A stretch of 18,477 nt of DNA, taken from NCBI GenBank assembly GCA_046758505.1, contig JBHIAH010000051.1:1-18477 (forward strand), given 5' to 3'. The stretch comes from Candidatus Methylomirabilales bacterium. Lineage in GTDB: Bacteria; Methylomirabilota; Methylomirabilia; Methylomirabilales; CSP1-5. A program made the translations under genes and the position numbers. Below, one piece after another: positions 4,588-17,381 of the stretch; positions within the stretch are counted from its first letter, which is position 1, and the number at the start of each line of letters is the position of its first letter. The notes beneath the pieces were generated by a model. That model was not told where the DNA came from. It saw only the letters and a list, made by a program, of their open reading frames with translations, and did no database searches.

Positions 4588-5997
4588 ATGAGCGAGGAGC
4601 CGGATAAGTTCCGGGACGCCTGCGGCGTCTTCGGGATCTGTGGCCATTCAGAGGCCGCCAATCTTACCTACCTCGGTCTGTACGCCCTGCAGCATCGTGG
4701 CCAGGAATCGGCGGGGATCGCGTGTTCCGACGGCAAGACGATCCACGTCGAGAAGGCGATGGGTCTCGTGGCCGATGTCTTCACCGAGGCCCGCCTCCGG
4801 CGGCTCCCAGGCGAAATCGCCATCGGGCACGTCCGATATTCCACGTCCGGGTCCAGCCAGCTCAAGAATGCTCAGCCCTTTCTCGCGGGGACGCATCGCG
4901 GCTCCCTGGCGCTTGCCCACAACGGGAACCTGGTCAACGCCGCGCGGATCCGGGCGGATCTGGAGGGTCACGGGTCCGTCTTTAGCTCCACCTCGGACAC
5001 CGAGGTTATTCTGCATCTGGTGGCGCGTTCGCAGGCGGAGAACTTGGTCGATGCGGCCGCCGAGGCGCTGCTGCACCTGCACGGGGCGTACTCGTTGGTC
5101 CTGATGAACGAGCGGCAGCTTCTCGGGATCCGCGACCCCCGGGGCTTTCGCCCCCTCTCCCTAGGCCAGTTCAAGGACGGCTACGTGCTCGCCTCCGAAT
5201 CGTGTGCCTTTGACCTGATCGGGGCGACCTTTGTGCGGGATGTGGAGCCGGGCGAGTTTTTGCTGATCGACGAGCGTGGAGTGCACTCTTACTTTCCCCT
5301 CTCGGTGGCACTCCCCTCCATGTGTATGTTCGAGTATGTGTACTTCGCCCGTCCCGACAGCCTGGTCTATGGTCAGCATGTCTCTCGGGTCCGAAAGGAG
5401 CTGGGCCACCACTTGGCCCAGGAGGCTCCCGCCGATGCCGATATCGTGATTGCTGTTCCCGACTCTGGGATTTACGCCGCCTTGGGCTTTGCCCAGGAAG
5501 CGGGCCTCCCGTACGAGCGGGGCATGGTTCGGAACCACTACGTGGGACGGACCTTCATCGAGCCCAAGAACTCTATCCGCCATTTTGGGGTCAAGGTGAA
5601 GTTGAACGCCGTTCGGGATGTCCTGGAGGGAAAACGGGTCGTCGTGGTGGATGACTCCATCGTGCGGGGGACGACCAGCCGGAAGATCGTCTTCATGCTC
5701 CGGTCGGCCGGTGCGCGGGAGGTTCATATGCGGATCAGCTCGCCCCCGACCACCTGGCCGTGTTACTACGGGATTGATACGCCGACCCGCCGGGAACTGA
5801 TCGCGTCTTCGCACACCGTGGAAGAGATCCAGCGATATATTGGCGCCGATTCGTTGGCATACCTCAGCCTGAAAGGCCTCGTGGCGGCGGTGGGCAAGGA
5901 TGACGGGTACTGTGCGGCGTGTTGGACTGGCGGATACCCGGTGGACTTTCCGGGCCAGGCGGGGCGACAGTTGAACCTCTTCACGGATCTCGGATAA
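4588..5997 (+). CDS. purF: amidophosphoribosyltransferase (Bacillus-type, propeptide and Fe-S cysteines)
   Basis: 11-residue propeptide then [33 protein letters not shown] (PRPP motif), PCYYGID and YCAACW. Confidence 0.98.
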
Positions 5998-6009: not shown

Positions 6010-6279
6010 ATGGCGGTCTCTACGGATCCTCACGAGCGGGCGCGGCGGCTCGCGCGGCTGATTGTGGCCGATATCATCCTCTATAATCAGTCCAAGATCG
6101 ACGAGGGGATCAAAAACGACACCCTCTTTGATGTCCTGGCCGAGGATATCGACGTCGCCCGTCGGTATTACGAAAAGCATGTGGACCCCGCTGTAGCCCG
6201 GGAGGCGAATTACTTCGACCTGGCCCTGGTCGATATCTTGGTCAAGGGACGGCAGGAAATCCCGTCCACGATCTGGTAA
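6010..6279 (+). CDS. romX: RomX-like small protein (putative MglA GEF subunit)
   Basis: 89 aa with GGGGAG SD. The pattern ARRLARLIVADIILYN..KI..GI.ND.LF.VL...NYF..A..DI...S.IW matches my recollection of M. xanthus RomX (about 88 aa, ending in IW). Confidence 0.75.
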   Translation: MAVSTDPHERARRLARLIVADIILYNQSKIDEGIKNDTLFDVLAEDIDVARRYYEKHVDPAVAREANYFDLALVDILVKGRQEIPSTIW

Positions 6280-6357
6280 GAGGCGTCTCCCACAACCACG
6301 GTCTGTATCTCTCCTTCCGACAACGACACAAAGAGTGTGGGTGGATTGGAGGAGGAG

Positions 6358-6378
6358 AAGGCCCCCGAGGGGGCCTTT
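6358..6378 (+). terminator. GC-rich hairpin (possible terminator or attenuator) between romX and hppA
   Basis: AAGGCCCC-CGAG-GGGGCCTT followed by only a short T run. Confidence 0.45.
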
Positions 6379-6415
6379 CGCGCTCCGTCTGAGCACGGGG
6401 GAGTGGAGGATTTCA

Positions 6416-8386
6416 ATGGCGATGGTGGCGGTGGTGGCAGGACTGATTGGCCTGGGGTATGCAAAATATCTTTCCTCGTATGTCATGAAACAGCCGGAGG
6501 GGACGGACCGGATGGTGGAGATCTCATCCGCCATTCGTCAGGGCGCCCGCGCCTTTCTCGCCCGCGAGTTCCGCGCGCTGGCCCTGTTTGCCGTCGTGTT
6601 GTTCCTCGCCCTGGGCATAATCGTCTCGTGGGGTGGCGCGCTGGCCTACCTGTTCGGAACGTTCACGTCGGCCCTGGCCGCCTACCTCGGGATGTCCATC
6701 GCCACCCGGGCCAATGCGCGGACGGCTCACGCTGCCGTGAGCAGCTATGCCACGGCGCTGAAGACCGCCTACTCGAGCGGGGGCGTCATGGGGTTCTGCG
6801 TGGTGGGGTTGGGCCTCTTCGGGCTCGGGGTGGTCTACCTCGTCGCTCCGGGTAACTTCGAGATGTGGCTCATCTATGCCTTTGGCGCCTCCTCGGTGGC
6901 CCTGTTCCTTCGTGTGGGCGGGGGGATCTTTACCAAGAGTGCCGATGTCGGCGCGGATCTGGTGGGCAAGGTGGAGGCCGGGATCCCGGAGGACGATCCG
7001 CGCAATCCGGCCGTGATCGCCGACAACGTGGGGGACAACGTGGGGGACATCGCCGGCATGGGCTCGGACCTGTTCGAGTCCTACGTGTCGGCGGTGGCGG
7101 CCTCGATGGTGCTGGGGGCGCACTTGGGCCCCCGGGGAATCCTGCTGCCGATGTATCTCGCCGCGGTGGGCATTGTCTCTTCCGTGGTCGGGACCCTGTT
7201 TGTCCGTCCCCCCGAGGTGAGCGGGTCCTTCGAGGCGCAGGCCGCCCAGGCCCGGCGCAGCATGAACACGGGGCTTTACATGTCCAATATCTTGGCCGTG
7301 GTGGGGGCCGTGATCCTGGTGTGGCTCTACCTCGGGGACTTGAACATCTTCTGGGCCCTCGTGCTCGGGCTGGCTTGTGGGACGGGCATTGGAATCGGGA
7401 CTGAATACTACACCGCGGAGAAGGCGCCCGTGATTGGGATCGCCCGGGCAAGCGAGACCGGGCCCGCAACCACGCTCATCGAGGGGATGGCCGTCGGGAT
7501 GATGAGCACCATTCCCCCCATCGTCCTGGTGGCGATTGCGACGGTGGGGTCCTTCCAGTTGGGGGGGCTGTACGGGATCGCCATTGCCTCCATGGGCATG
7601 CTGGTCACGCTGGGGAGCGTGTTGGCCATCGACTGTTACGGGCCCATTGTGGACAACGCCGCCGGTATCGCCGAGATGGCGCACCTGGGGACGGAGGTCC
7701 GCGAGCGCTGCGAGGCGCTGGATTCGGTGGGCAACACCACGGCGGCAGTCGGCAAGGGTTTTGCCATCGGGTCGGCGGCGTTGGCCTCCCTGGCCTGGCT
7801 GGCGACCTACTTCGAGGTTGCCAAGGTCGAGTCGGTGAGTCTCACCGATGTCCACGTGATGGCCGGCCTGTTTATCGGGTGTCTCCTTCCCTTTGTCTTT
7901 AGCGCCCTCGCGATGCGGGGCGTCGGGGCCGGCGGCCATGACATGGTTGCCGAGGTGCGGCGCCAGTTCAAGGAGATTCCTGGCCTGATGGCGGGCAAGG
8001 GCAAGCCTGACTACATCGCGTGCGTGGACATCGCCACCCGAAGAGCGCTCCGCTCGATGTTGCTGCCGGGACTGATCGTCATCATCACTCCCGTGGCGCT
8101 CGGGCTGCTCCTCGGCGTCGCCTCGCTGGCCGGCCTCTTGATGGGGGCGCTCTTGAGCGGCTTTGTCCTGGCCGTCTTCATGGCCAACGCCGGCGGGGCC
8201 TGGGATAACGCCAAGAAGTACATCGAGGCCGGCAATCTGGGGGGGAAGGGGAGTGAGGCGCACAAGGCGGCGATCATCGGCGATACGGTCGGGGATCCCT
8301 TTAAGGACACCGCCGGCCCCTCGCTCAACATCCTGATCAAGCTGGTAGGGAAGGTGGCGGTGATCTTTTCTCCGCTCTTCCTCTAA
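6416..8386 (+). CDS. hppA: membrane-bound ion-translocating pyrophosphatase, K+-dependent, probably Na+-pumping
   Basis: GGGIFTKSADVGADLVGKVE, EDDPRN, DNVGDNVGD, GMGSDLFESY, GNTTAAVG (Ala form) and GDTVGDPFKDTAGP. SD GGAGGA lies 5 nt before the ATG. Confidence 0.97.
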   Translation: MAMVAVVAGLIGLGYAKYLSSYVMKQPEGTDRMVEISSAIRQGARAFLAREFRALALFAVVLFLALGIIVSWGGALAYLFGTFTSALAAYLGMSIATRANARTAHAAVSSYATALKTAYSSGGVMGFCVVGLGLFGLGVVYLVAPGNFEMWLIYAFGASSVALFLRVGGGIFTKSADVGADLVGKVEAGIPEDDPRNPAVIADNVGDNVGDIAGMGSDLFESYVSAVAASMVLGAHLGPRGILLPMYLAAVGIVSSVVGTLFVRPPEVSGSFEAQAAQARRSMNTGLYMSNILAVVGAVILVWLYLGDLNIFWALVLGLACGTGIGIGTEYYTAEKAPVIGIARASETGPATTLIEGMAVGMMSTIPPIVLVAIATVGSFQLGGLYGIAIASMGMLVTLGSVLAIDCYGPIVDNAAGIAEMAHLGTEVRERCEALDSVGNTTAAVGKGFAIGSAALASLAWLATYFEVAKVESVSLTDVHVMAGLFIGCLLPFVFSALAMRGVGAGGHDMVAEVRRQFKEIPGLMAGKGKPDYIACVDIATRRALRSMLLPGLIVIITPVALGLLLGVASLAGLLMGALLSGFVLAVFMANAGGAWDNAKKYIEAGNLGGKGSEAHKAAIIGDTVGDPFKDTAGPSLNILIKLVGKVAVIFSPLFL

Positions 8387-8390
8387 CGGA

Positions 8391-8632
8391 GACTGACGAC
8401 CGATGACCGTTGACCGACCATCTGGTTCACAGTTCACGGTTCATGGTTCACGGTCAAAACCTGGGGCACATCGAGAACTGTGAAGCCTTAAGGTAAGACT
8501 CCTTCGGTTTAGCGTTCCATCTGGCTCCGTGGACCGTAAGCTGTGGGCCCTCAGCTCGCGGCTGTGAACCGCGAATCCCCAGGTGTCAGACGTCAGCGGG
8601 GAAATCCTCAAGCTGAAAGCTGATAGCTGACA
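8391..8632. repeat. intergenic cluster of 7-bp-periodic repeats and inverted repeats
   Basis: GACTGAC GACCGAT GACCGTT GACCGAC (8391-8418); GGTTCAC AGTTCAC GGTTCAT GGTTCAC (8424-8451); AGCTGAA AGCTGAT AGCTGAC (8611-8631). Confidence 0.75.
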
Positions 8633-8668
8633 GGTGTATGCTGACTGCGGAGTGGTGAGGGCGGTGCA

Positions 8669-9511
8669 GTGATCCGGCGGCCGCACCACGATGGATGGAT
8701 CCTGATCACCCAGCGGGATCATGCGATGCTGTCTGGAGCCCTGATGGCGCGGTGGGGGAATGAAGCCTTCGCTCCTGCCGCACCCCACGCGGAGGTCCTC
8801 TTCGGCATCGCCGAGCATGATAACGGGTGGGAAGAGTGGGATCAGGCGCCCAAGATCCATGTCGAGAGCGGCTATCCCCTGCACTTCAACGAGCTTGCCG
8901 CCGAGGCCTACGGTCAGATCTGGCGGCGCGGGGTCGAGCGGTATCGAAAAAGGTCCCCGTACGCGTCCCTGCTTATCACCCTCCACACCGCAGATCTCGC
9001 CCGCAGGCGGCTGGAGAATACGGCCCGGCGGGAGGCAGAGAGCAAGTCGGCGAGCCGGTTTCTGGGGAAGGGGGTGGGCGGCCGTGCGGAGACGGCCACT
9101 CTCAGCGTGTTTCTTGCGGAGATGGAAGCGCGTCGGGGAGAGCTCACTGACGCGCTGATGGGCCAAGCCAAGGCGCGATCCGATCGGCTCGAGGCCGAAA
9201 TCGAGGCCAACTTTCGCCTCCTCCAGATCGGGGATATCATCTCCCTCATGTTCTGTTGCGGCCTTTCCGGGCCTTTTACGCTCGAGGACGTCCCAACGGG
9301 GGAAGGCGGCCCTCGCGGTTCTGTGATCTTCGAGCCGGTGAGTGAAGACACCCTCGGCGTGCGCCCGTATCCCTTTTCAGAGCACGACGTTACGGTGGCC
9401 GTCCCGGGCCGTCTCCTCCGCCACAGGGTCTTTGCCTCCAACGCGGAGCTCCACGCGCATCTCAATCGGGCTGCCCCCATCAGTCTGGTCTTCCATCTGC
9501 AGCCGGCATAG
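8669..9511 (+). CDS. DUF3891-like protein (putative HD-type metal-binding fold)
   Basis: GTG start. N-terminal LITQRDHAMLSGALMARWG and IAEHDNGWEEWD, plus YASLLITLH and LLQIGDIISL, are typical of DUF3891. Confidence 0.75.
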   Translation: MIRRPHHDGWILITQRDHAMLSGALMARWGNEAFAPAAPHAEVLFGIAEHDNGWEEWDQAPKIHVESGYPLHFNELAAEAYGQIWRRGVERYRKRSPYASLLITLHTADLARRRLENTARREAESKSASRFLGKGVGGRAETATLSVFLAEMEARRGELTDALMGQAKARSDRLEAEIEANFRLLQIGDIISLMFCCGLSGPFTLEDVPTGEGGPRGSVIFEPVSEDTLGVRPYPFSEHDVTVAVPGRLLRHRVFASNAELHAHLNRAAPISLVFHLQPA

Positions 9512-9513
9512 CG

Positions 9514-9556
9514 GAGCTCCCCGAGGGGGGACGGGAGGGCCCGGCGTGGGGAGCTC
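9514..9556. repeat. inverted repeat after the DUF3891 gene stop
   Basis: GAGCTCCCC (9514-9522) and GGGGAGCTC (9548-9556). Confidence 0.5.
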
Positions 9557-9574
9557 TGTCGGGGGAGGTCCGCC

Positions 9575-9603
9575 TTGCGAAGTGGGGCCGTCTGCGACAT
9601 ACT
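9575..9603 (+). promoter_or_regulatory. putative sigma70 promoter of the radical SAM gene
   Basis: TTGCGA-N17-CATACT, followed by SD GAGGAG before ATG 9626. Confidence 0.4.
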
Positions 9604-9625
9604 ATGGTCAGTGAGGAGATGAGAC

Positions 9626-10612
9626 ATGCCTCCGGGGACTCTGGCGAAAACCCAATATGAGCCGGGCTACGTGGCGCTCTCCCGATCCGGGGAGCTCGAG
9701 CGGCGGGCGGAGCAGGCCCTCGGTATGCTTGCGTGTTGCACCGTCTGTCCCCGTGACTGTGAAATCAATCGGCTGCAGGGGGAAAAGGCGGTGTGCAAGA
9801 CGGGTCGCTACGCGGCCGTGGGGAGCTATTTTCCCCACTTCGGCGAGGAAGACTGCCTCCGCGGGTGGCGCGGCAGCGGGACGATCTTTTTCTCGATGTG
9901 TAACCTCCGCTGCGTCTTCTGTCAGAATTATGATCTGAGTCAGGAAGGAACAGGACGAGAGACTCGCCCGGAACGCCTCGCGCAGATGATGCTGGAGCTT
10001 CAGGAGGAGGGCTGCCACAACATCAATTTTGTCACGCCGGAGCATGTCGTTCCCCAGATCCTGGAGGCGGTACCGCTCGCGGTGCGGATGGGCCTCCGGC
10101 TCCCCCTCGTCTATAACACGAGCGCCTACGATTCCCTCGAGAGTCTGCGGCACCTGGATGGCGTCGTTGACATTTATATGCCCGACTTGAAGTTCTGGGA
10201 TCCCGATGTGTCCAAGCGACTCGCGAAGGCCAAGGACTATCCGGCGGCCGCGGCCGCGGCCATCAAGGAGATGCACCGGCAAGTGGGGGATCTGACGTTC
10301 GCCGAGGATGGGCTGGCCCGGCGGGGATTGCTCGTCCGCCATCTGGTGATGCCGGGAGGCGTGGCCGGGACGCGTGAGGTGGTGCGCTTCCTGGCGCAGG
10401 AGATTTCGCCCCACACCTACGTCAACATCATGGCCCAGTATCACCCGGCAGGTCTGGTGGGCCCGGAGAAGTACCCGGAAATTAACCGCCGGATTACGGC
10501 CGAGGAGTATCAGGAGGCAATCCGGGTCGCCCGCGAGGAGGGGCTGTACCGCTTTGATGAGCGTCACACCATCAGGCGCCGCCTCCGCATCCGGGAACCG
10601 GGATTCGACTAA
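9626..10612 (+). CDS. radical SAM protein, PflX/COG1313-like
   Basis: N-terminal CTVCPRDC, HFGEEDCLRG..GSGTIFF, CNLRCVFCQN (CxxxCxxC), HNINFVTP, DIYMPDLK and VRHLVMPG. Confidence 0.92.
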   Translation: MPPGTLAKTQYEPGYVALSRSGELERRAEQALGMLACCTVCPRDCEINRLQGEKAVCKTGRYAAVGSYFPHFGEEDCLRGWRGSGTIFFSMCNLRCVFCQNYDLSQEGTGRETRPERLAQMMLELQEEGCHNINFVTPEHVVPQILEAVPLAVRMGLRLPLVYNTSAYDSLESLRHLDGVVDIYMPDLKFWDPDVSKRLAKAKDYPAAAAAAIKEMHRQVGDLTFAEDGLARRGLLVRHLVMPGGVAGTREVVRFLAQEISPHTYVNIMAQYHPAGLVGPEKYPEINRRITAEEYQEAIRVAREEGLYRFDERHTIRRRLRIREPGFD

Positions 10613-10623
10613 AGGGGGGAGCG

Positions 10624-12042
10624 ATGTCCGGGGACAAGTATCGCATCGAACGGGACTCGATGGGGGACGTGCGGGTTCCCGCCGAGGCCTATTACGGCGC
10701 GCAAACGCAACGGGCGGTGGAAAACTTTCCCGTCAGCGGGCTTCGGTTTCCCCCGGACTTCATTCGCGCTTTGGGAATGATCAAACTGTGTGCGGCGAGA
10801 GCGAACCTGGATCTCGGGCTCTTGGATCGGCAGGTCGCCGAGGCCATTATCCGGGCCGCCCAGGAGGTGGTGGACGGTAAATGGGACGGGGAGTTCGTCC
10901 TCGACATCTTCCAGACCGGCTCCGGAACCTCGACGAACATGAATGCCAACGAGATGATCGCCAACCGGGCTATCGAACTGCTGGGGGGTGAGATTGGCAG
11001 CAAGCGCCCGGTCCATCCCAACGATCACGTGAACCTGGGTCAGTCGTCCAACGATGTGATTCCGACCGCTATCCATCTGGCCGCCCTGCACGTGGTCGAG
11101 CGTGAGCTCCTTCCCGCCCTTCGCGGGCTCCACCAGGCCCTCCTCGCCAAGGCGCAGGAGTTCGACGGGGTGGTGAAGATTGGCCGGACTCACTTGCAGG
11201 ATGCGACCCCCGTCCGGCTGGGGCAGGAGTTCGCCGGCTATGCCAGGCAGATCGAACTGGCCGTCGCGCGGGTCGAACGGGTCCGCCCATCATTGGGAGA
11301 GCTGGCCCTCGGCGGCACGGCCGTGGGAACCGGGATCAACACCCATCCGGAGTTTCCTGCTCAGGTCATCCGGTACCTGGGCGAGATGACGCGGCTTCCG
11401 CTCACCGAGGCCAAGCATCACTTTGCGGCCCAAGGGGGGCAGGATGCGGTCGTGGAGACGAGCGGGGCGCTCAAGACGGTGGCGGTCGGCCTGACGAAAA
11501 TCGCGAATGACATCCGCTGGCTCGGGTCGGGTCCTCGCTGCGGCATCGGCGAGATCCTCCTTCCCGCCATCCAGCCGGGTTCCTCCATCATGCCGGGCAA
11601 GGTCAATCCGGTCATCCCGGAGGCCGTTATCCAGGTGGCGGCCCACGTGATCGGCAACGATGCCTGCATCACCCTCGGGGGCCTGGGGGGATATTTCGAA
11701 CTCAATATGATGCTGCCGGTCATGGCGTACACGGTCTTGCAGTCCATTACCCTGCTCGCGAGCGTTTCCCGGATCTTTGTGGAGAAGTGTCTTGCGGGGA
11801 TTCGCGTCGATGAGGCTCGCTGTGCCGAGCTCATCGAGCAGTCCCTGGCGATGTGCACCGCGCTGGCGCCGGTCATCGGCTATGATGCCGCAGCAAAGAT
11901 CGCCAAGGAGAGCTATGAGACGGGCAAGACGGTGCGGCAGGTGGCAGTAGAGCACCAGGTCCTTCCCGAGGAGGAACTCACGCGGATCCTGGATCCGCGG
12001 CAGATGACAGAGCGGGGGATTGGACGCCGTGGCGAGAGGTGA
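10624..12042 (+). CDS. fumC: class II fumarate hydratase
   Basis: YYGAQTQRA, QTGSGTSTNMNANE, GRTHLQDATP and GSSIMPGKVNP. Confidence 0.95.
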   Translation: MSGDKYRIERDSMGDVRVPAEAYYGAQTQRAVENFPVSGLRFPPDFIRALGMIKLCAARANLDLGLLDRQVAEAIIRAAQEVVDGKWDGEFVLDIFQTGSGTSTNMNANEMIANRAIELLGGEIGSKRPVHPNDHVNLGQSSNDVIPTAIHLAALHVVERELLPALRGLHQALLAKAQEFDGVVKIGRTHLQDATPVRLGQEFAGYARQIELAVARVERVRPSLGELALGGTAVGTGINTHPEFPAQVIRYLGEMTRLPLTEAKHHFAAQGGQDAVVETSGALKTVAVGLTKIANDIRWLGSGPRCGIGEILLPAIQPGSSIMPGKVNPVIPEAVIQVAAHVIGNDACITLGGLGGYFELNMMLPVMAYTVLQSITLLASVSRIFVEKCLAGIRVDEARCAELIEQSLAMCTALAPVIGYDAAAKIAKESYETGKTVRQVAVEHQVLPEEELTRILDPRQMTERGIGRRGER

Positions 12043-12217
12043 CGTTCCGCGGGAGCAGGGGCGGGAGCGGACGGCCATTCTGGCGTTCCTTGTCGGGTAC
12101 GGGGGATTCGTCATGGGGACGGTCCTCATCCCGATCTCGCCCACTCTGGGCGGTATCATCTTCTGGGCGGGGGTCTTTGGAATCTTTTGGGCCGGCTGGT
12201 GGTCGAGCAGAAAGTAG
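12029..12217 (+). CDS. small hypothetical membrane protein (about 62 aa, 2 TM helices)
   Basis: Overlaps the fumC end. Two hydrophobic segments, AILAFLVGYGGFVMGTVLI and LGGIIFWAGVFGIFWAGWW, and a basic C-terminus. Start is GTG 12029 or TTG 12020. Confidence 0.6.
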   Translation: MARGDVPREQGRERTAILAFLVGYGGFVMGTVLIPISPTLGGIIFWAGVFGIFWAGWWSSRK

Positions 12218-12257
12218 GCGCCCGGACGGGCGACGAATTGAGGGCGTGTCTTTCTCC

Positions 12258-12285
12258 GTGAACTGTGAACCGTGAACGGCGAACT
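12258..12285. repeat. GTGAAC(N) heptamer array
   Basis: GTGAACT GTGAACC GTGAACG GCGAACT, the reverse complement of the array type at 8424-8451. Confidence 0.75.
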
Positions 12286-12391
12286 AATGCCGTTCCACCG
12301 TGTTCGGCCCAGTCCGAGCCTCACAGTTCGGCCTGCTTCCTCGGTTCAGTGAGCGGCAGGTGTTCGGGGAAAATAGTTGGAACGGCACTAG
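12284..12391. mobile_element. putative MITE-like element (about 108 bp) overlapping the ilvE stop codon
   Basis: Terminal inverted repeats CTAATGCCGTTCCA and TGGAACGGCACTAG (13 of 14 match), non-coding interior. Confidence 0.45.
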
Positions 12392-13302
12392 TAGACGGCG
12401 GTACACCAGGCCTGATACTTTTTGTGCTCCGCCTTGACGACTTGGAAGTAGAGCTGTTGGATCTTTGCAGTCACGGGACCGATCTTGCCGTCGCTGAGGG
12501 GGCGCCGATCCACCTCGATAATGGGAGACACCTGGGCCCCCGTCCCGCAGAGGAAGGCCTCGTCGCAGAGATAGAGCTCTGACCGTCCTACCCGCCGTTC
12601 GATCACCTCGAGATCGAGCTCATCACGACACAGATCGATCAGAACCTGGCGTGTGATGCCTTCCAGGATATCGGCCGAGAAGTCCGGGGTGATCAGCTTC
12701 CCCCCACGAATCAGGAAGATGTTCTCGGCCGATCCTTCAGAGATGAATCCGTCCTGGGTCAGGAAGATGGCCTCATCGAAGCCTTGCTCCACCGCCTCCG
12801 TTTTCGCCAGGGCGGAATTCACGTACCCGCCGACCACCTTACACCGGGCTGGGATCGTATTGTCGTTGATCCGCCGCCACGAGCTGAAGCCGACCTTGAC
12901 CCCGGTGGAGGTATCGATGTAGTCCCCCAGGGGAAGCGTGTATATGGCGAATCCGGTGTCGTACCCGATGAGCTTGGGCCCCAGACCCTCGGAGCTGATA
13001 TAGGCAAGCGGCCGAATGTACGTGTCCTCCCGATGGTGGTTCTTTCGCAGGAGTTCCAGGGTGATGTCGCAGAGCTCCTTGATGTCTTTGCCTACCTGGA
13101 GTCGCAGGACGCGGCAATTGCGCAGCATTCGCTCGTAGTGCTCGTCCATCTTGAACACAAAGAGCTGTTTCTGCCGGGCATTCCAGTACGCGCGAATGCC
13201 TTCAAAAATCCCGGTGCCGTACTGGAGCGCATTCGTGCGGACGCTAATCCTGGCGTCGTCGAGGGGGACGAACTGGTTGTTGAAAAACGCAAACGGCTGC
13301 AT
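12388..13302 (-). CDS. ilvE: branched-chain amino acid aminotransferase (class IV)
   Basis: ALQYGTGIFEGIR, YIRP, CKVVGGYVNS (PLP lysine), EGSAENIF, ILEGITR and EAFLCGTGA. Confidence 0.95.
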   Translation of the reverse strand: MQPFAFFNNQFVPLDDARISVRTNALQYGTGIFEGIRAYWNARQKQLFVFKMDEHYERMLRNCRVLRLQVGKDIKELCDITLELLRKNHHREDTYIRPLAYISSEGLGPKLIGYDTGFAIYTLPLGDYIDTSTGVKVGFSSWRRINDNTIPARCKVVGGYVNSALAKTEAVEQGFDEAIFLTQDGFISEGSAENIFLIRGGKLITPDFSADILEGITRQVLIDLCRDELDLEVIERRVGRSELYLCDEAFLCGTGAQVSPIIEVDRRPLSDGKIGPVTAKIQQLYFQVVKAEHKKYQAWCTAVY

Positions 13303-13349
13303 GCGGGGCCCTCTCGGCCTTTCGAACGCTTCCCCGGTGTGTGAGAAGA

Positions 13350-13379
13350 AAAGTAGCGAGAGTGTGGGCAAAAAGTCAA
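13350..13379 (-). promoter_or_regulatory. putative sigma70 promoter of ilvE
   Basis: Minus strand TTGACT-N18-TACTTT. Confidence 0.45.
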
Positions 13380-13441
13380 CTGAATTTTCGCGGGCGCGAG
13401 GACGAGGGGGTCCCCGGTCGGCCCAAAGAGCCAAAAAGCCC

Positions 13442-13470
13442 TTGACAAGAGGGGGAGGGGAAGGTAGCGT
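13442..13470 (+). promoter_or_regulatory. sigma70 promoter of romR(-valS)
   Basis: TTGACA-N17-TAGCGT, divergent from ilvE. Confidence 0.6.
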
Positions 13471-13560
13471 GTCGTCAATAAATTTCGCAAGTTGGAACGC
13501 GCCTTGCAACGTCTTCCGGGACGGTATGACGTTGCTGACGCCACGCAAAAGGAGCACACC

Positions 13561-14532
13561 ATGAAAGCCCGGATCCTGGTCGCCGACGATAGTGCGACGA
13601 TTCAGAAGGTGGTCGAGCTCACCCTGAGTCGGGTCGGTGTGGAACTGATCCAGGCCCGGAGCGCGAACGAGGCCATGCAGAAGGCCAGGGAAGAGAAGCC
13701 TGACCTGATGCTGATCGATCACGCGATGCCGGACCAGTCGGGCCAGGACCTGTGTGCGGCGCTCCGACAGGATGCTCAACTCGCAAGTGTTCCCATCATC
13801 TTCATGACGGGGGCCTCCGCGCCCGTCGACGAGGAGGAAGCGCGGCGGGCTGGAGCAACCGACATGGTGGCCAAGCCCTTTGAGTCGCAGGTTCTCATCG
13901 GGAAGGTGAAGCAGTTATTGCGTGTCCCCATGGCAGAGCAAGCGGCGCTCGCGGATGTGGAAAGCCAGCCGGGGGACGCGGCTCTCGTCCTCGAGCCCTC
14001 GGGGGAGCTGGGCGAAACGATCACGCTTCCCGCCGATGTGATGGGGGACAGTCTGGCGGAGATGACGGCCCAGGATCCGGCGGGCGCGGACGTTCCGACC
14101 TACGACCTCCCGGTGACCGAGGGAGAAGAGCTCCCGCTCGAGGCCATGGTCTCTGAGGATGCACCGGCATCCTCGACACCTGGGGTCGGGGAGATGGCGT
14201 TTCAGGACATGGCCGCGGCCGTGGGGATGGAGGCGCCGGGGGTACGGACCAGGGAAGAGAGGATCCTGGAGCCGGCGCCAGCACCTCCCCAGCTCAGGGA
14301 GGCACAGGTGGCGCCACCGGGGGCGCAGCCCCTGGCGGTTCCGGCCGATCTGGTCGAGACGCTCGCCCGCGAGGTGGCCGAGCGCGTCGCCAGCCACATT
14401 GTCCGGGAGCTCAGGTCGGATCTCCTCGAGCGGGTGGATCGACTGCTCTGGGAGGTGGTCCCCGACTTGGCCGAGCAGTTAATCACGCAGGAAATCCAGC
14501 GGATCCGGGATCTCGTCGAAGGGAAGAAGTAG
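13561..14532 (+). CDS. romR: RomR-like response regulator (receiver domain, acidic Pro/Ala-rich linker, conserved C-terminal helix)
   Basis: SD AAGGAG. Receiver domain with D9/D10, D53, T and K (LVADDS, KPFESQVL), a low-complexity linker, and C-terminal LLWEVVPDLAEQLITQEIQRI. Lies directly upstream of valS. Confidence 0.85.
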   Translation: MKARILVADDSATIQKVVELTLSRVGVELIQARSANEAMQKAREEKPDLMLIDHAMPDQSGQDLCAALRQDAQLASVPIIFMTGASAPVDEEEARRAGATDMVAKPFESQVLIGKVKQLLRVPMAEQAALADVESQPGDAALVLEPSGELGETITLPADVMGDSLAEMTAQDPAGADVPTYDLPVTEGEELPLEAMVSEDAPASSTPGVGEMAFQDMAAAVGMEAPGVRTREERILEPAPAPPQLREAQVAPPGAQPLAVPADLVETLAREVAERVASHIVRELRSDLLERVDRLLWEVVPDLAEQLITQEIQRIRDLVEGKK

Positions 14533-14600: not shown

Positions 14601-17381
14601 ATGGGCGAGCGGAGTCGCCACGGCTACGATCCTCGGGATGTGGAGCCCCGCTGGTATGCCCTCTGGGAACAGCGTAGTTTCTTCCACGCCGACCCGAATT
14701 CCCCCCGGTCTCCGTACAGCATCGTCATCCCTCCACCGAACATCACCGGCTCTCTCCACATGGGGCACGCCCTGAACAACACCCTGCAGGATGTCCTGAC
14801 CCGGTGGCGGCGGATGCTCGGCGATAACACCCTCTGGATGCCGGGGACCGACCATGCGGGCATTGCGACCCAGAACGTGGTGGAACGCCAGCTCCTGGCG
14901 GAGGGACTGACCCGCCAGCAGATCGGACGGGAGGCCTTCGTGGCGCGGGTCTGGCGGTGGCGGGAGGAGTCGGGGAGGACCATCATCGGCCAGCTGAAGA
15001 AGTTAGGGGCCTCCTGTGATTGGACCCGGGAATCCTTCACCATGGATGCCCCACGCCAGCGCGCGGTTCTCGAGGTCTTCGTCCGCCTCTGGGAGGATGG
15101 GCTGTTGTACCGGGCGGAGCGGCTGGTGAACTGGTGTCCGCGGTGCGAGACCGCCCTGGCCGATATCGAGGTCGTGCATGAAGAGGCGGACGGTCGCCTG
15201 TGGCACATCCGATACCCCTTCGCTGGGGACCCGGCGCAGGGTGTGGTCGTGGCCACGACTCGGCCCGAGACGATGCTGGCCGATACCGCCGTGGCGGTCC
15301 ACCCGGACGACCCCCGGTATACGAAGGCAATCGGCCAGCACGTGATCCTCCCCCTGGTGGGACGGAGGCTTCCGGTCATCGCCGATCCGTACGTGTCCCG
15401 GGACTTCGGGACGGGAGCCCTCAAGATCACGCCCGGCCATGACTTCAACGATTTCGAGATCGGGCAGCACCATGGCCTCCCCGTGATTGCCGCGTTTCAG
15501 GCGGACGGGAAGGTCAGTGAGGCTTTCTTGGCCGATGCCAGTGACGAGGTCCGGAGCCGCCTCGCCGGCTATGTCGGTCGGGACCGATTTGCGGTGCGGC
15601 GGATGGTCTGTGACGATCTCGAGCGGGAGGGTCTCCTGGTCAAGGAGGAGCCGTACCGGTACGCGTTGGGTCGCTGCTACCGGTGCCAGACGGCTGTCGA
15701 GCCCTATCTGACTCCCCAGTGGTTCGTCCGGACGAAGCCGCTGGCCGAGCCGGCCATCCAGGCGGTCGAGGAAGGCCGCGTCCGCATCGTCCCTCCGCAG
15801 TGGGAAAAGAACTACTTCGAATGGATGCAGAACATCCGGGATTGGTGCATCTCGCGGCAGATCTGGTGGGGGCATCAGATCCCGGCCTGGTACTGCCTGA
15901 CCTGCGATGCGGATCATATCCGCACGGGTGGTGCAGCGACCACGGACGTGGTGGAGATCTCACCACAGGCCAGGCCGATCGTCGCTCGGGAGCGCCCGGG
16001 GGCCTGTCCGCGGTGCGGGGGCCAGGCGCTCTATCAGGATCCCGATGTGCTCGATACCTGGTTCAGCTCCGCCCTCTGGCCCTTTTCTACCCTGGGCTGG
16101 CCGGAGCAGACGAAGGCACTTGCCGTCTTTTATCCCACGACCGTGCTGGTGACGGCCTTTGACATCCTCTTCTTCTGGGTCGCGCGGATGATCATGATGG
16201 GGCTGAAGTGCATGGGGGACGTCCCCTTCCGGCAGGTGTATATCCACGCGCTGGTCCGGGACCCGGAGGGGCAGAAGATGTCCAAATCCAAGGGGAATGT
16301 CATCGACCCGCTCGTCATGATCGAGAAGTATGGGGCCGACGCCCTCCGTTTTACCCTCACCGCCCTGGTCGCCCAGGGGCGGGATGTCAGGCTTTCCGAA
16401 GAGCGCATCGAGGGATATCGGTACTTCTGTAACAAGATCTGGAACGCCTATCGCTTTGTGAGCCTGCATGTGCCCGAAGGGGATCGAGCCGGGATGCTTG
16501 CGTCCCTGCACGAGAAGTGGCCCGCCCGGGCAGACCTCGCGGATCGGTGGATCCTGAGTCGCCTGCAGGAGGTGATCGCATCGGTGACCGAGGCGCTCGA
16601 GACCTTTCGGTTCAGCGATGCCGCCTCCCATATTTATCAATTCCTCTGGCATGAGTACTGCGACTGGTACCTGGAGCTCGTCAAGGTCAGGCTCACCACC
16701 GAGGGGGACCAGGCGGCGCGCGAGACGGGGCGTCTCCTCTTGGCCCGGGTGCTGGAGGTGGCGCTCAGGCTCCTGCATCCCATTATGCCCTTCATCACGG
16801 AGGAGATCTGGCAGCACCTGCGCCCTCCGACGGCGGATCCCCCGAGCGTCATGGTGGCCCCGTGGCCCGTCCCCGACTCCTCCCTCGTGGACCCGGAGGC
16901 GATGCGGAGGATGGAGCGGGTGATGGGGGTGATCCGCAGCATCCGCAACATCCGGTCTGAGGTCCGGATTCCCCCCAATGCCTGGCCGACGGTGCTGATA
17001 AAAGTTGAGGGAGCGGAAGACGAATCCCTCCTCGGAAGCACACAGGGCTCCGTGCGGCATCTCGCCAGGGTGGGCGAGGTGCGGATCGGACGAACGCTTG
17101 AGCGGCCCCGCCTGTCGGCGGTGGCGGTGACCGCTGGCATGGAAATCTATGTCCCCCTGGAAGGACTGATCGACATCGCCTCGGAAACTCAACGGCTCGA
17201 CCGGGAGCTCACCAAGGTGAAGCGAGAGCTGGAAGGGGCGAGCCGGAAGCTCAGCAACGCCGACTTTCTCGCCAGGGCACCCGCAGACGTGGTGGGCAAG
17301 GAGCGGGAGAACCAGCGGGCGCTCCGCGAGACCCGGGAGAAACTCGAGGGACATCTCACGATGCTCAGAGATGAGGGGTGA
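14601..17381 (+). CDS. valS: valine--tRNA ligase
   Basis: PPPNITGSLHMGH, GTDHAGIATQ, DWCISRQIWWGH, KMSKSKGN and a C-terminal coiled coil. SD GGAGG. Confidence 0.98.
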   Translation: MGERSRHGYDPRDVEPRWYALWEQRSFFHADPNSPRSPYSIVIPPPNITGSLHMGHALNNTLQDVLTRWRRMLGDNTLWMPGTDHAGIATQNVVERQLLAEGLTRQQIGREAFVARVWRWREESGRTIIGQLKKLGASCDWTRESFTMDAPRQRAVLEVFVRLWEDGLLYRAERLVNWCPRCETALADIEVVHEEADGRLWHIRYPFAGDPAQGVVVATTRPETMLADTAVAVHPDDPRYTKAIGQHVILPLVGRRLPVIADPYVSRDFGTGALKITPGHDFNDFEIGQHHGLPVIAAFQADGKVSEAFLADASDEVRSRLAGYVGRDRFAVRRMVCDDLEREGLLVKEEPYRYALGRCYRCQTAVEPYLTPQWFVRTKPLAEPAIQAVEEGRVRIVPPQWEKNYFEWMQNIRDWCISRQIWWGHQIPAWYCLTCDADHIRTGGAATTDVVEISPQARPIVARERPGACPRCGGQALYQDPDVLDTWFSSALWPFSTLGWPEQTKALAVFYPTTVLVTAFDILFFWVARMIMMGLKCMGDVPFRQVYIHALVRDPEGQKMSKSKGNVIDPLVMIEKYGADALRFTLTALVAQGRDVRLSEERIEGYRYFCNKIWNAYRFVSLHVPEGDRAGMLASLHEKWPARADLADRWILSRLQEVIASVTEALETFRFSDAASHIYQFLWHEYCDWYLELVKVRLTTEGDQAARETGRLLLARVLEVALRLLHPIMPFITEEIWQHLRPPTADPPSVMVAPWPVPDSSLVDPEAMRRMERVMGVIRSIRNIRSEVRIPPNAWPTVLIKVEGAEDESLLGSTQGSVRHLARVGEVRIGRTLERPRLSAVAVTAGMEIYVPLEGLIDIASETQRLDRELTKVKRELEGASRKLSNADFLARAPADVVGKERENQRALRETREKLEGHLTMLRDEG

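Follow-up and report, generated by a model that had tools for sequence, protein, structure and literature searches.

Do two genes lying about 7 kb apart among housekeeping genes encode the partners of the RomR-RomX complex, and does the bacterium that carries them possess a cell-polarity switch built around the GTPase MglA? The question is raised by a contig of 18,477 nucleotides (JBHIAH010000051.1, GenBank assembly GCA_046758505.1; hereafter the window) from a Candidatus Methylomirabilales bacterium, in which an initial annotation had proposed a RomX-like and a RomR-like gene. The polarity module described for Myxococcus xanthus consists of MglA, MglB, MglC, RomR, RomX, and RomY, with SgmX as an effector. 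We conclude, with a probability of about 0.8, that romX and romR of the window are vertically inherited orthologues and form part of this bacterium's dispersed Mgl/Rom polarity module. Gene identity, conserved interface residues, genome partners, co-occurrence, and co-loss carry this conclusion. The two genes and the parts of RomR are placed as follows.

6010..6279, + strand: romX (label P0001), 89 residues, three-helix bundle; sequence and fold match to PDB 8ZNA
13561..14532, + strand: romR (label P0002), 323 residues; Pfam Response_reg over residues 5–116, E 8.8e-23
13561..13926, + strand: RomR receiver, residues 1–122; V17, D53, KPFES, and E108, with numbering as in M. xanthus
13927..14346, + strand: RomR linker, residues 123–262; acidic, Pro/Ala-rich, poorly conserved
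14347..14529, + strand: RomR-C helix, residues 263–323; W297 (codon 14449–14451), P301, and E305

The 89-residue open reading frame (ORF) at 6010–6279 was confirmed on the plus strand and, judged by sequence and predicted fold, is a RomX orthologue. Residues 8–89 match M. xanthus RomX (PDB 8ZNA) with an E-value of 4.6e-16, and the other four matches have E-values of 0.016 or weaker. The AlphaFold2 model contains three helices (mean pLDDT 86.5) and aligns with 8ZNA at a Foldseek TM-score of 0.85; this is the sole match of ten with E ≤ 0.001, and the next best TM-score is 0.37. Both comparisons bear out the RomX-like label of the initial annotation. In M. xanthus RomX, R11, R14, and D19 are assigned to MglA binding, and a Leu-Arg pair in helix 3 together with W87 to binding of the RomR receiver (bioRxiv 2024.02.20.581209). 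The 8ZNA alignment places the MglA-facing residues at R13, R16, and D21 in helix 1 of the window protein and the receiver-facing ones at V78-K79 and the terminal W89; the Leu-Arg pair appears in the structure paper as L75/R76, numbered one below the PDB chain as counted here. By analogy, the window protein would bind both the RomR receiver and MglA-GTP. A RomX profile returned this single match in the whole genome, and Pfam and NCBIfam gave no model matching either RomX or RomR-C. The domain itself is widespread, with 3573 clusters at 50% identity retrieved by the profile. Many of the best 150 of these clusters are long multi-domain proteins, and the window RomX is of the stand-alone kind. Look-alikes in the ESM Atlas fall in unnamed clusters, most commonly from Myxococcota. 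Long proteins P0233–P0254 carry two to five RomX-like repeats.

The 323-residue ORF at 13561–14532 was likewise confirmed on the plus strand, and its sequence features identify it as a RomR orthologue. Although the ORF listing allows an extension to a TTG at 13492, the start is the ATG at 13561, where 30 aligned homologues begin at the matching residue. The protein has the three-part layout of receiver, linker, and RomR-C defined for RomR in PMC3441718, with a receiver followed by an unconserved 140-residue linker and a Glu-rich helical C-terminus. The linker contains 26 Asp/Glu, 4 Lys/Arg, 19 Pro, and 26 Ala residues and is probably disordered. The sequence carries KPFESQVL (residues 105–112), D53, and WEVVPDLAEQLITQEIQR, so the receiver motif, the phosphorylation site, and the C-terminal helix pattern that the initial annotation had given for RomR can all be read in the romR product. 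V17, D53, and E108 are numbered as their published M. xanthus counterparts are. W297, P301, and E305 are invariant in all 30 aligned homologues; W297 sits 26 residues from the end, as does W394 in the 420-residue M. xanthus RomR, and E305 corresponds to E402, both M. xanthus residues being named in PMC12719032. With its Pfam receiver, this C-terminal triad, and valS following after 68 bp, the gene is the RomR-like receiver-linker-helix gene upstream of valS that had been proposed.

Homologues support the same assignment. A profile made from the window RomR and its relatives scores the window protein at 506 bits and the next protein of the genome at 101, a difference that reports uniqueness rather than independent support, given how the profile was built. 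The profile of RomR relatives was also run on five deltaproteobacterial or myxobacterial metagenome-assembled genomes; in two it singled out a receiver protein that precedes valS and shares the C-terminal motif (L188, L189), and in the other three it found nothing but generic receivers. A receiver tree joins 11 Methylomirabilota receivers and two valS-adjacent deltaproteobacterial RomR-C proteins in a 13-row clade with support of 100/99, in an analysis of 62 rows and 122 columns with an unconverged bootstrap, from which M. xanthus RomR was absent. It might be argued that the window protein is an unrelated receiver protein that merely resembles RomR, as PDB and NCBIfam returned generic receiver matches and no RomR model, and the M. 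xanthus RomR sequence lay outside the comparison. The architecture, the residue positions, the valS neighbourhood, the tree grouping, and the co-loss with RomX counter this view, and we consider it extremely improbable. RomR-C scores in the ESM Atlas were all below 0.9, including a weak DUF2497 row, and were not used.

The remainder of the genome (G000; 96.8% complete, no pmoA-family match) supplies most partners. Close named homologues belong to Candidatus Methylomirabilales or candidate division NC10, in agreement with an earlier guess of a Methylomirabilota-like host; identity to candidate division NC10 bacterium CSP1-5 (L129) is 80% for ValS and ArgS, 87% for PurF, and 91% for RomX. The initial annotation predicted a Rom/Mgl system and staked it on the presence of an MglA-family GTPase, which is encoded on contig C57 in the order dnaX-ybaB-recR-mglB-mglA (locus L001). 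The recR-mglB-mglA order is common to G000 and the Myxococcales locus L219. MglA is of group 1 and matches M. xanthus MglA in the PDB with E 1e-96, and MglB, whose gene is coupled to mglA, matches PDB MglB with E 1e-36. MglA keeps R53, TVPGQ, Q82, E108, and E111, with E115 replaced by Gln, and no second GTPase of the MglA family turned up in G000. RomY (C15:18994–19254) is an 87-residue protein that consists of the N-terminal domain only (NF053858, 91 bits, cut-off 50); the gene was located through deltaproteobacterial homologues and its identity then confirmed with NCBIfam. Type IVa pilus genes lie on C52 (pilB-pilT-pilC) and C4 (pilM to pilQ), with PilB, PilT, PilM, and PilQ over their cut-offs, and no flagellin was found in this 96.8% complete genome. 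The partner search that had been suggested yielded mglA, mglB, a short romY, and pilus genes; it returned no mglC, and the SgmX-like TPR protein (C8, 635 residues) reached 190 bits against a cut-off of 1800 for a model of 1065 positions.

Binding, polar location, and output can be modelled by analogy with M. xanthus and Bdellovibrio. The linker and C-terminal helix of RomR would direct it to a cell pole, and its receiver would bind RomX at helix 3 and the terminal Trp. RomX would use helix 1 to bind MglA-GTP, as exchange factor or effector, bringing MglA to the RomR pole, and MglB together with the short RomY would switch MglA off elsewhere. MglA-GTP may act on the type IVa pilus machine via the SgmX-like TPR protein; in our proposal, pili would then form at one pole and serve twitching, attachment, or DNA uptake. 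The initial annotation described RomR-RomX as the guanine nucleotide exchange factor (GEF) of MglA. That is one of two published views and is disputed in print: in bioRxiv 2024.10.31.621274, RomRX is reported to be an effector of MglA-GTP, not a GEF.

We surveyed a sample of 151 genomes of the phylum and 66 genomes of the order; the tallies include the unpublished genomes G046, G057, and G167, and no claim depends on these alone. RomX is present in 30 of the 151, with a single or a broad query alike; it occurs in all 11 genomes of the window's family and in none of the 94 genomes of f9, a large family. An MglA of greater divergence (mostly 52–59%) is encoded in 44 of these 94, and two f9 loci have the order mglA-mglB-pilB-like. 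Two f9 genomes, G056 (L104:853–1992) and G010 (L105:919–1689), encode a degenerate receiver with a RomR-C-like tail in which the Trp is replaced by Arg, away from valS and with no RomX found. Across the order, MglA is found in 42 genomes, RomR-C in 42, RomY in 36, the SgmX-like C-terminus in 50, and PilM in 54. MglA rows cluster by family in a quick tree, which fits vertical descent; we reject a recent transfer from myxobacteria, because both the MglA tree and the receiver tree (unrooted) group sequences by family and because gene neighbourhoods are shared.

All ten pmoA-bearing genomes of the order fall in one genus, g3, which, given established knowledge, we take to be Ca. Methylomirabilis. 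In these ten, RomR-C, RomY, and the SgmX-like domain are each absent (0/10), as is RomX from the nine tested; MglA appears once, as a distant sequence in G172 (8% contamination). Five near-complete pmoA-bearing genomes have no romR before valS, and in four of the five purF abuts hppA, with romX deleted from between them. The pmoA-bearing G004 retains a broken romX remnant after purF (L208:2298–2474). In g3, recR was found in four genomes, and in none of them is it followed by mglB or mglA.

Several observations weigh against a complete Mgl/Rom module acting on pili. M. xanthus RomR was compared via published residues rather than by its sequence. MglC was not found: an alignment of six MglC-type roadblock proteins gave no match in any of the 14 other members of the window's family, and an enlarged profile run on G000 returns MglB only. 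GltE, the sole gliding marker examined, is not represented over the cut-off by any of 22 weak TPR matches in G000, and chemotaxis amounts to one minimal MCP-CheW-CheA cluster with a CheA of 506 residues; on these two grounds Myxococcus-type reversals are doubtful. PilM is retained in 16 of 20 g3 genomes without the module, so pili do not need it. Finally, the pmoA-negative g3 genomes (67–94% complete) hold RomX in six of nine tested and RomR-C in five of ten but MglA in none of ten, so RomX and RomR can occur together where the GTPase is absent. The chemotaxis cluster itself (L250:8365–11580; G000:C28:12364–15579) comprises three genes with no CheY, CheB, or CheR beside them and is a possible input to RomR D53.

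The pmoA-negative g3 genomes also bear on the main rival, by which RomR-RomX would mainly serve, in the manner of Bdellovibrio RomR, as a fixed polar hub for non-motility functions (cell cycle, pole identity, and c-di-GMP signalling), the link to MglA and pili being secondary. RomX and RomR here outlive MglA, RomY (0/10), and MglC, with the helix-1 residues of RomX intact, and both genes ride with housekeeping operons; in B. bacteriovorus, RomR is described as essential and as a hub with many partners (PMC11025332). However, romX and romR are missing from complete pmoA-bearing genomes and are therefore not essential in the order, and the SgmX-like gene parallels the pair in g3 (6 of 20 genomes, none pmoA-positive), which ties the pair to a pilus activator. 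We regard a hub mainly for non-motility functions, an analogy from Bdellovibrio, as unlikely and retain the polarity module as the better account.

For the polarity module, the g3 genomes suggest a sequence of losses. The romX and romR loci of pmoA-negative g3 are L097 and L099–L102 (G055, G040, G097, G121, and G045) together with L014–L016, L021, L022, and L031, and in all five RomR proteins of the named genomes the invariant RomR-C Trp is replaced by Arg. We infer that mglA, mglB, mglC, and romY were lost first, followed by the RomR-C Trp, and that RomR and RomX lingered without the GTPase until their deletion; the order stays at that level because the genomes are kin, partly incomplete, and not placed on a species tree.

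The fate of mglC is most visible at one site. A deltaproteobacterial protein encoded between a TPR gene and aroQ matches MglC in the PDB with E 2.7e-27, and the six-protein alignment has matches in 25 of the 66 order genomes, a few of which are weak MglB cross-matches. aroQ is present in 59 genomes, and among the best 30 of these the aroQ site holds an MglC match in 6/6 loci of families f4 and f6, in 0/11 loci of g3, and in 0/13 loci of the window's family, where the gap from the TPR gene to aroQ, computed for 12 of the 13, is 6–101 bp. PMC10329633 presents MglC as central to the M. xanthus feedback loop and K14, R115, and K120 of MglB as among its MglC-binding surfaces; wider MglA and MglC families are treated in PMC4316618 and PMC4719450. 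The corresponding MglB residues R16, R117, and R122 are retained in G000, and so is RomR W297, which likewise corresponds to an MglC-binding surface in M. xanthus, although MglC was not found. The polarity switch of the window's family appears to run without MglC, and a diverged substitute elsewhere in the genome is possible. We give somewhat less than even odds to a joint account of a naturally minimal switch (MglA, MglB, RomR, RomX, and a single-domain RomY, after a clean deletion of mglC) and its stepwise dismantling towards the methane oxidisers. Such a switch could use either direct RomR-MglB binding or an unknown protein in place of MglC. RomR is reported to bind MglB directly with low affinity (bioRxiv 2024.10.31.621274), by which the switch could dispense with MglC. 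Elsewhere in the order, other families have another MglC-like roadblock gene, flanked by smc and an ftsY-like gene (L227–L234, L236–L238, L240, and L241); this site is empty in G000 (C8:5221–5246).

What, then, does the proximity of romX and romR mean? The pair is separated by 7281 bp and surrounded by argS, an alanine transaminase gene, purF, hppA, DUF3891, radical SAM, class II fumarase-family lyase, and ilvE (reverse strand) genes, valS, and birA, of which the following frame the argument.

4588..5997, + strand: purF; TIGR01134 over cut-off; context
6416..12042, + strand: variable housekeeping block (hppA, DUF3891, radical SAM, class II fumarase-family lyase); context, outside the module
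12388..13302, − strand: ilvE; TIGR01122 over cut-off; divergent from romR across 258 bp, between the two cassettes
14601..17381, + strand: valS; TIGR00422 over cut-off; 68 bp 3' of romR; conserved neighbour

The purF stop codon lies 12 bp upstream of the romX start, and because of this spacing purF and romX are probably co-transcribed. Each ATG of the pair is preceded by a purine-rich Shine-Dalgarno-like stretch; promoter scans, which were uninformative, detected no sigma-70-like site ahead of romR or in the vicinity of romX. Among 34 named Methylomirabilota-type loci (L123–L156), purF precedes romX in every one, and romR follows 2.6–8.1 kb downstream in 16; of the other 18, 15 hold less than 4.2 kb downstream of romX. 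These figures, together with a chance of roughly 0.5% that two random loci lie so close, could indicate that the proximity itself is selected and the pair co-regulated. We find this very improbable. Nine genes of variable content and the divergent ilvE lie between romX and romR, and the two genes are not linked in G058 (two contigs of more than 500 kb), G001, G124, and G016. In 25 loci from other phyla, neither purF nor romR ever stands beside romX, and the genomes listed in the S1 Table of PMC9481161 have romX and romR about 100 or more locus tags apart. The 16 linked loci count as one event, because the genomes are kin. We reject an operon or island as the explanation of the 7-kb proximity, given the divergent ilvE, the variable genes, and the broken links. 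Instead, the 7.3-kb spacing is order-level synteny: one ancestral chromosome order with two housekeeping cassettes, purF-romX and romR-valS.

The Methylomirabilales module is a further member of a known system, in one more phylum. It resembles that of M. xanthus in the fold and interface residues of RomX, the architecture and key residues of RomR, a group 1 MglA with R53 and TVPGQ, a coupled mglB, the RomY N-terminal domain, an SgmX-like protein, and type IVa pilus genes. It differs in that MglC was not found, RomY has 87 residues and no C-terminal part, RomR has 323 residues rather than 420, the SgmX-like protein has 635 residues against the 1065-position model, no GltE exceeds the cut-off, and romX follows purF with romR 7.3 kb away, the two genes being far apart in M. 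xanthus. The suggestion that such a system would be little described outside Deltaproteobacteria does not hold, since Rom/Mgl genes have been published for Acidobacteria, Deferribacterales, and Aquificales, and RomX also for Gemmatimonas (PMC3441718; PMC9481161 S1 Table). Geobacter, Pelobacter, and these three groups combine MglA and MglB, plus RomR, RomX, and RomY, with type IV pili outside the myxobacteria, as here; the present case adds another phylum, outside the 32 species of the S1 Table of PMC9481161. The account in PMC9481161 of a survey of 1611 genomes names Deltaproteobacteria, Acidobacteria, Deferribacterales, and Aquificales, and not NC10. Bdellovibrio bacteriovorus offers another reduced module in a non-myxobacterium, with RomR, MglA, SgmX, and RomY tied to polar pili (PMC11025332), but in the S1 Table of PMC9481161 it is without MglB and RomX, whereas G000 has both and MglC was not found instead.

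Our literature searches found nothing on the module in Methylomirabilota, NC10, or Rokubacteria, among sources that excluded most subscription papers, and supplements may list such homologues; searches on Methylomirabilota type IV pili and on Methylomirabilales pili or motility, judged by titles, found nothing on it either. The phylum may be unlisted in complete-genome surveys because the well-known methane-oxidising genomes are without the module. New here are two findings: all 13 of the family's loci examined have no mglC at the site where it usually lies, and the pmoA-bearing genus appears to have lost the module stepwise. The best-studied bacterial front-rear polarity switch is thereby extended to Methylomirabilota, and uncultured relatives that are not methanotrophs are predicted to have regulated type IV pili at the pole. 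The set without MglC provides a natural test of MglC bridging RomR and MglB versus direct RomR-MglB competition, and RomR-RomX pairs without MglA would test a GTPase-independent role of the pair.

Three further observations concern the surroundings. Within the genus, two types of hppA, one with about 40% and the other with about 86% identity to the window gene at 6416–8386, alternate after romX (window; L106, L107, and L119), and this alternation at one site suggests replacement in place. A small hydrophobic ORF of about 65 residues (12020–12217, + strand), 3' of the fumarase-family gene, is conserved in the genus and has no Pfam match. Elsewhere in the genome, at C100:3650–7346, a third PilB/GspE-type ATPase is encoded beside a protein with a long Pro-rich linker, the N-terminus of which looks PATAN-like.

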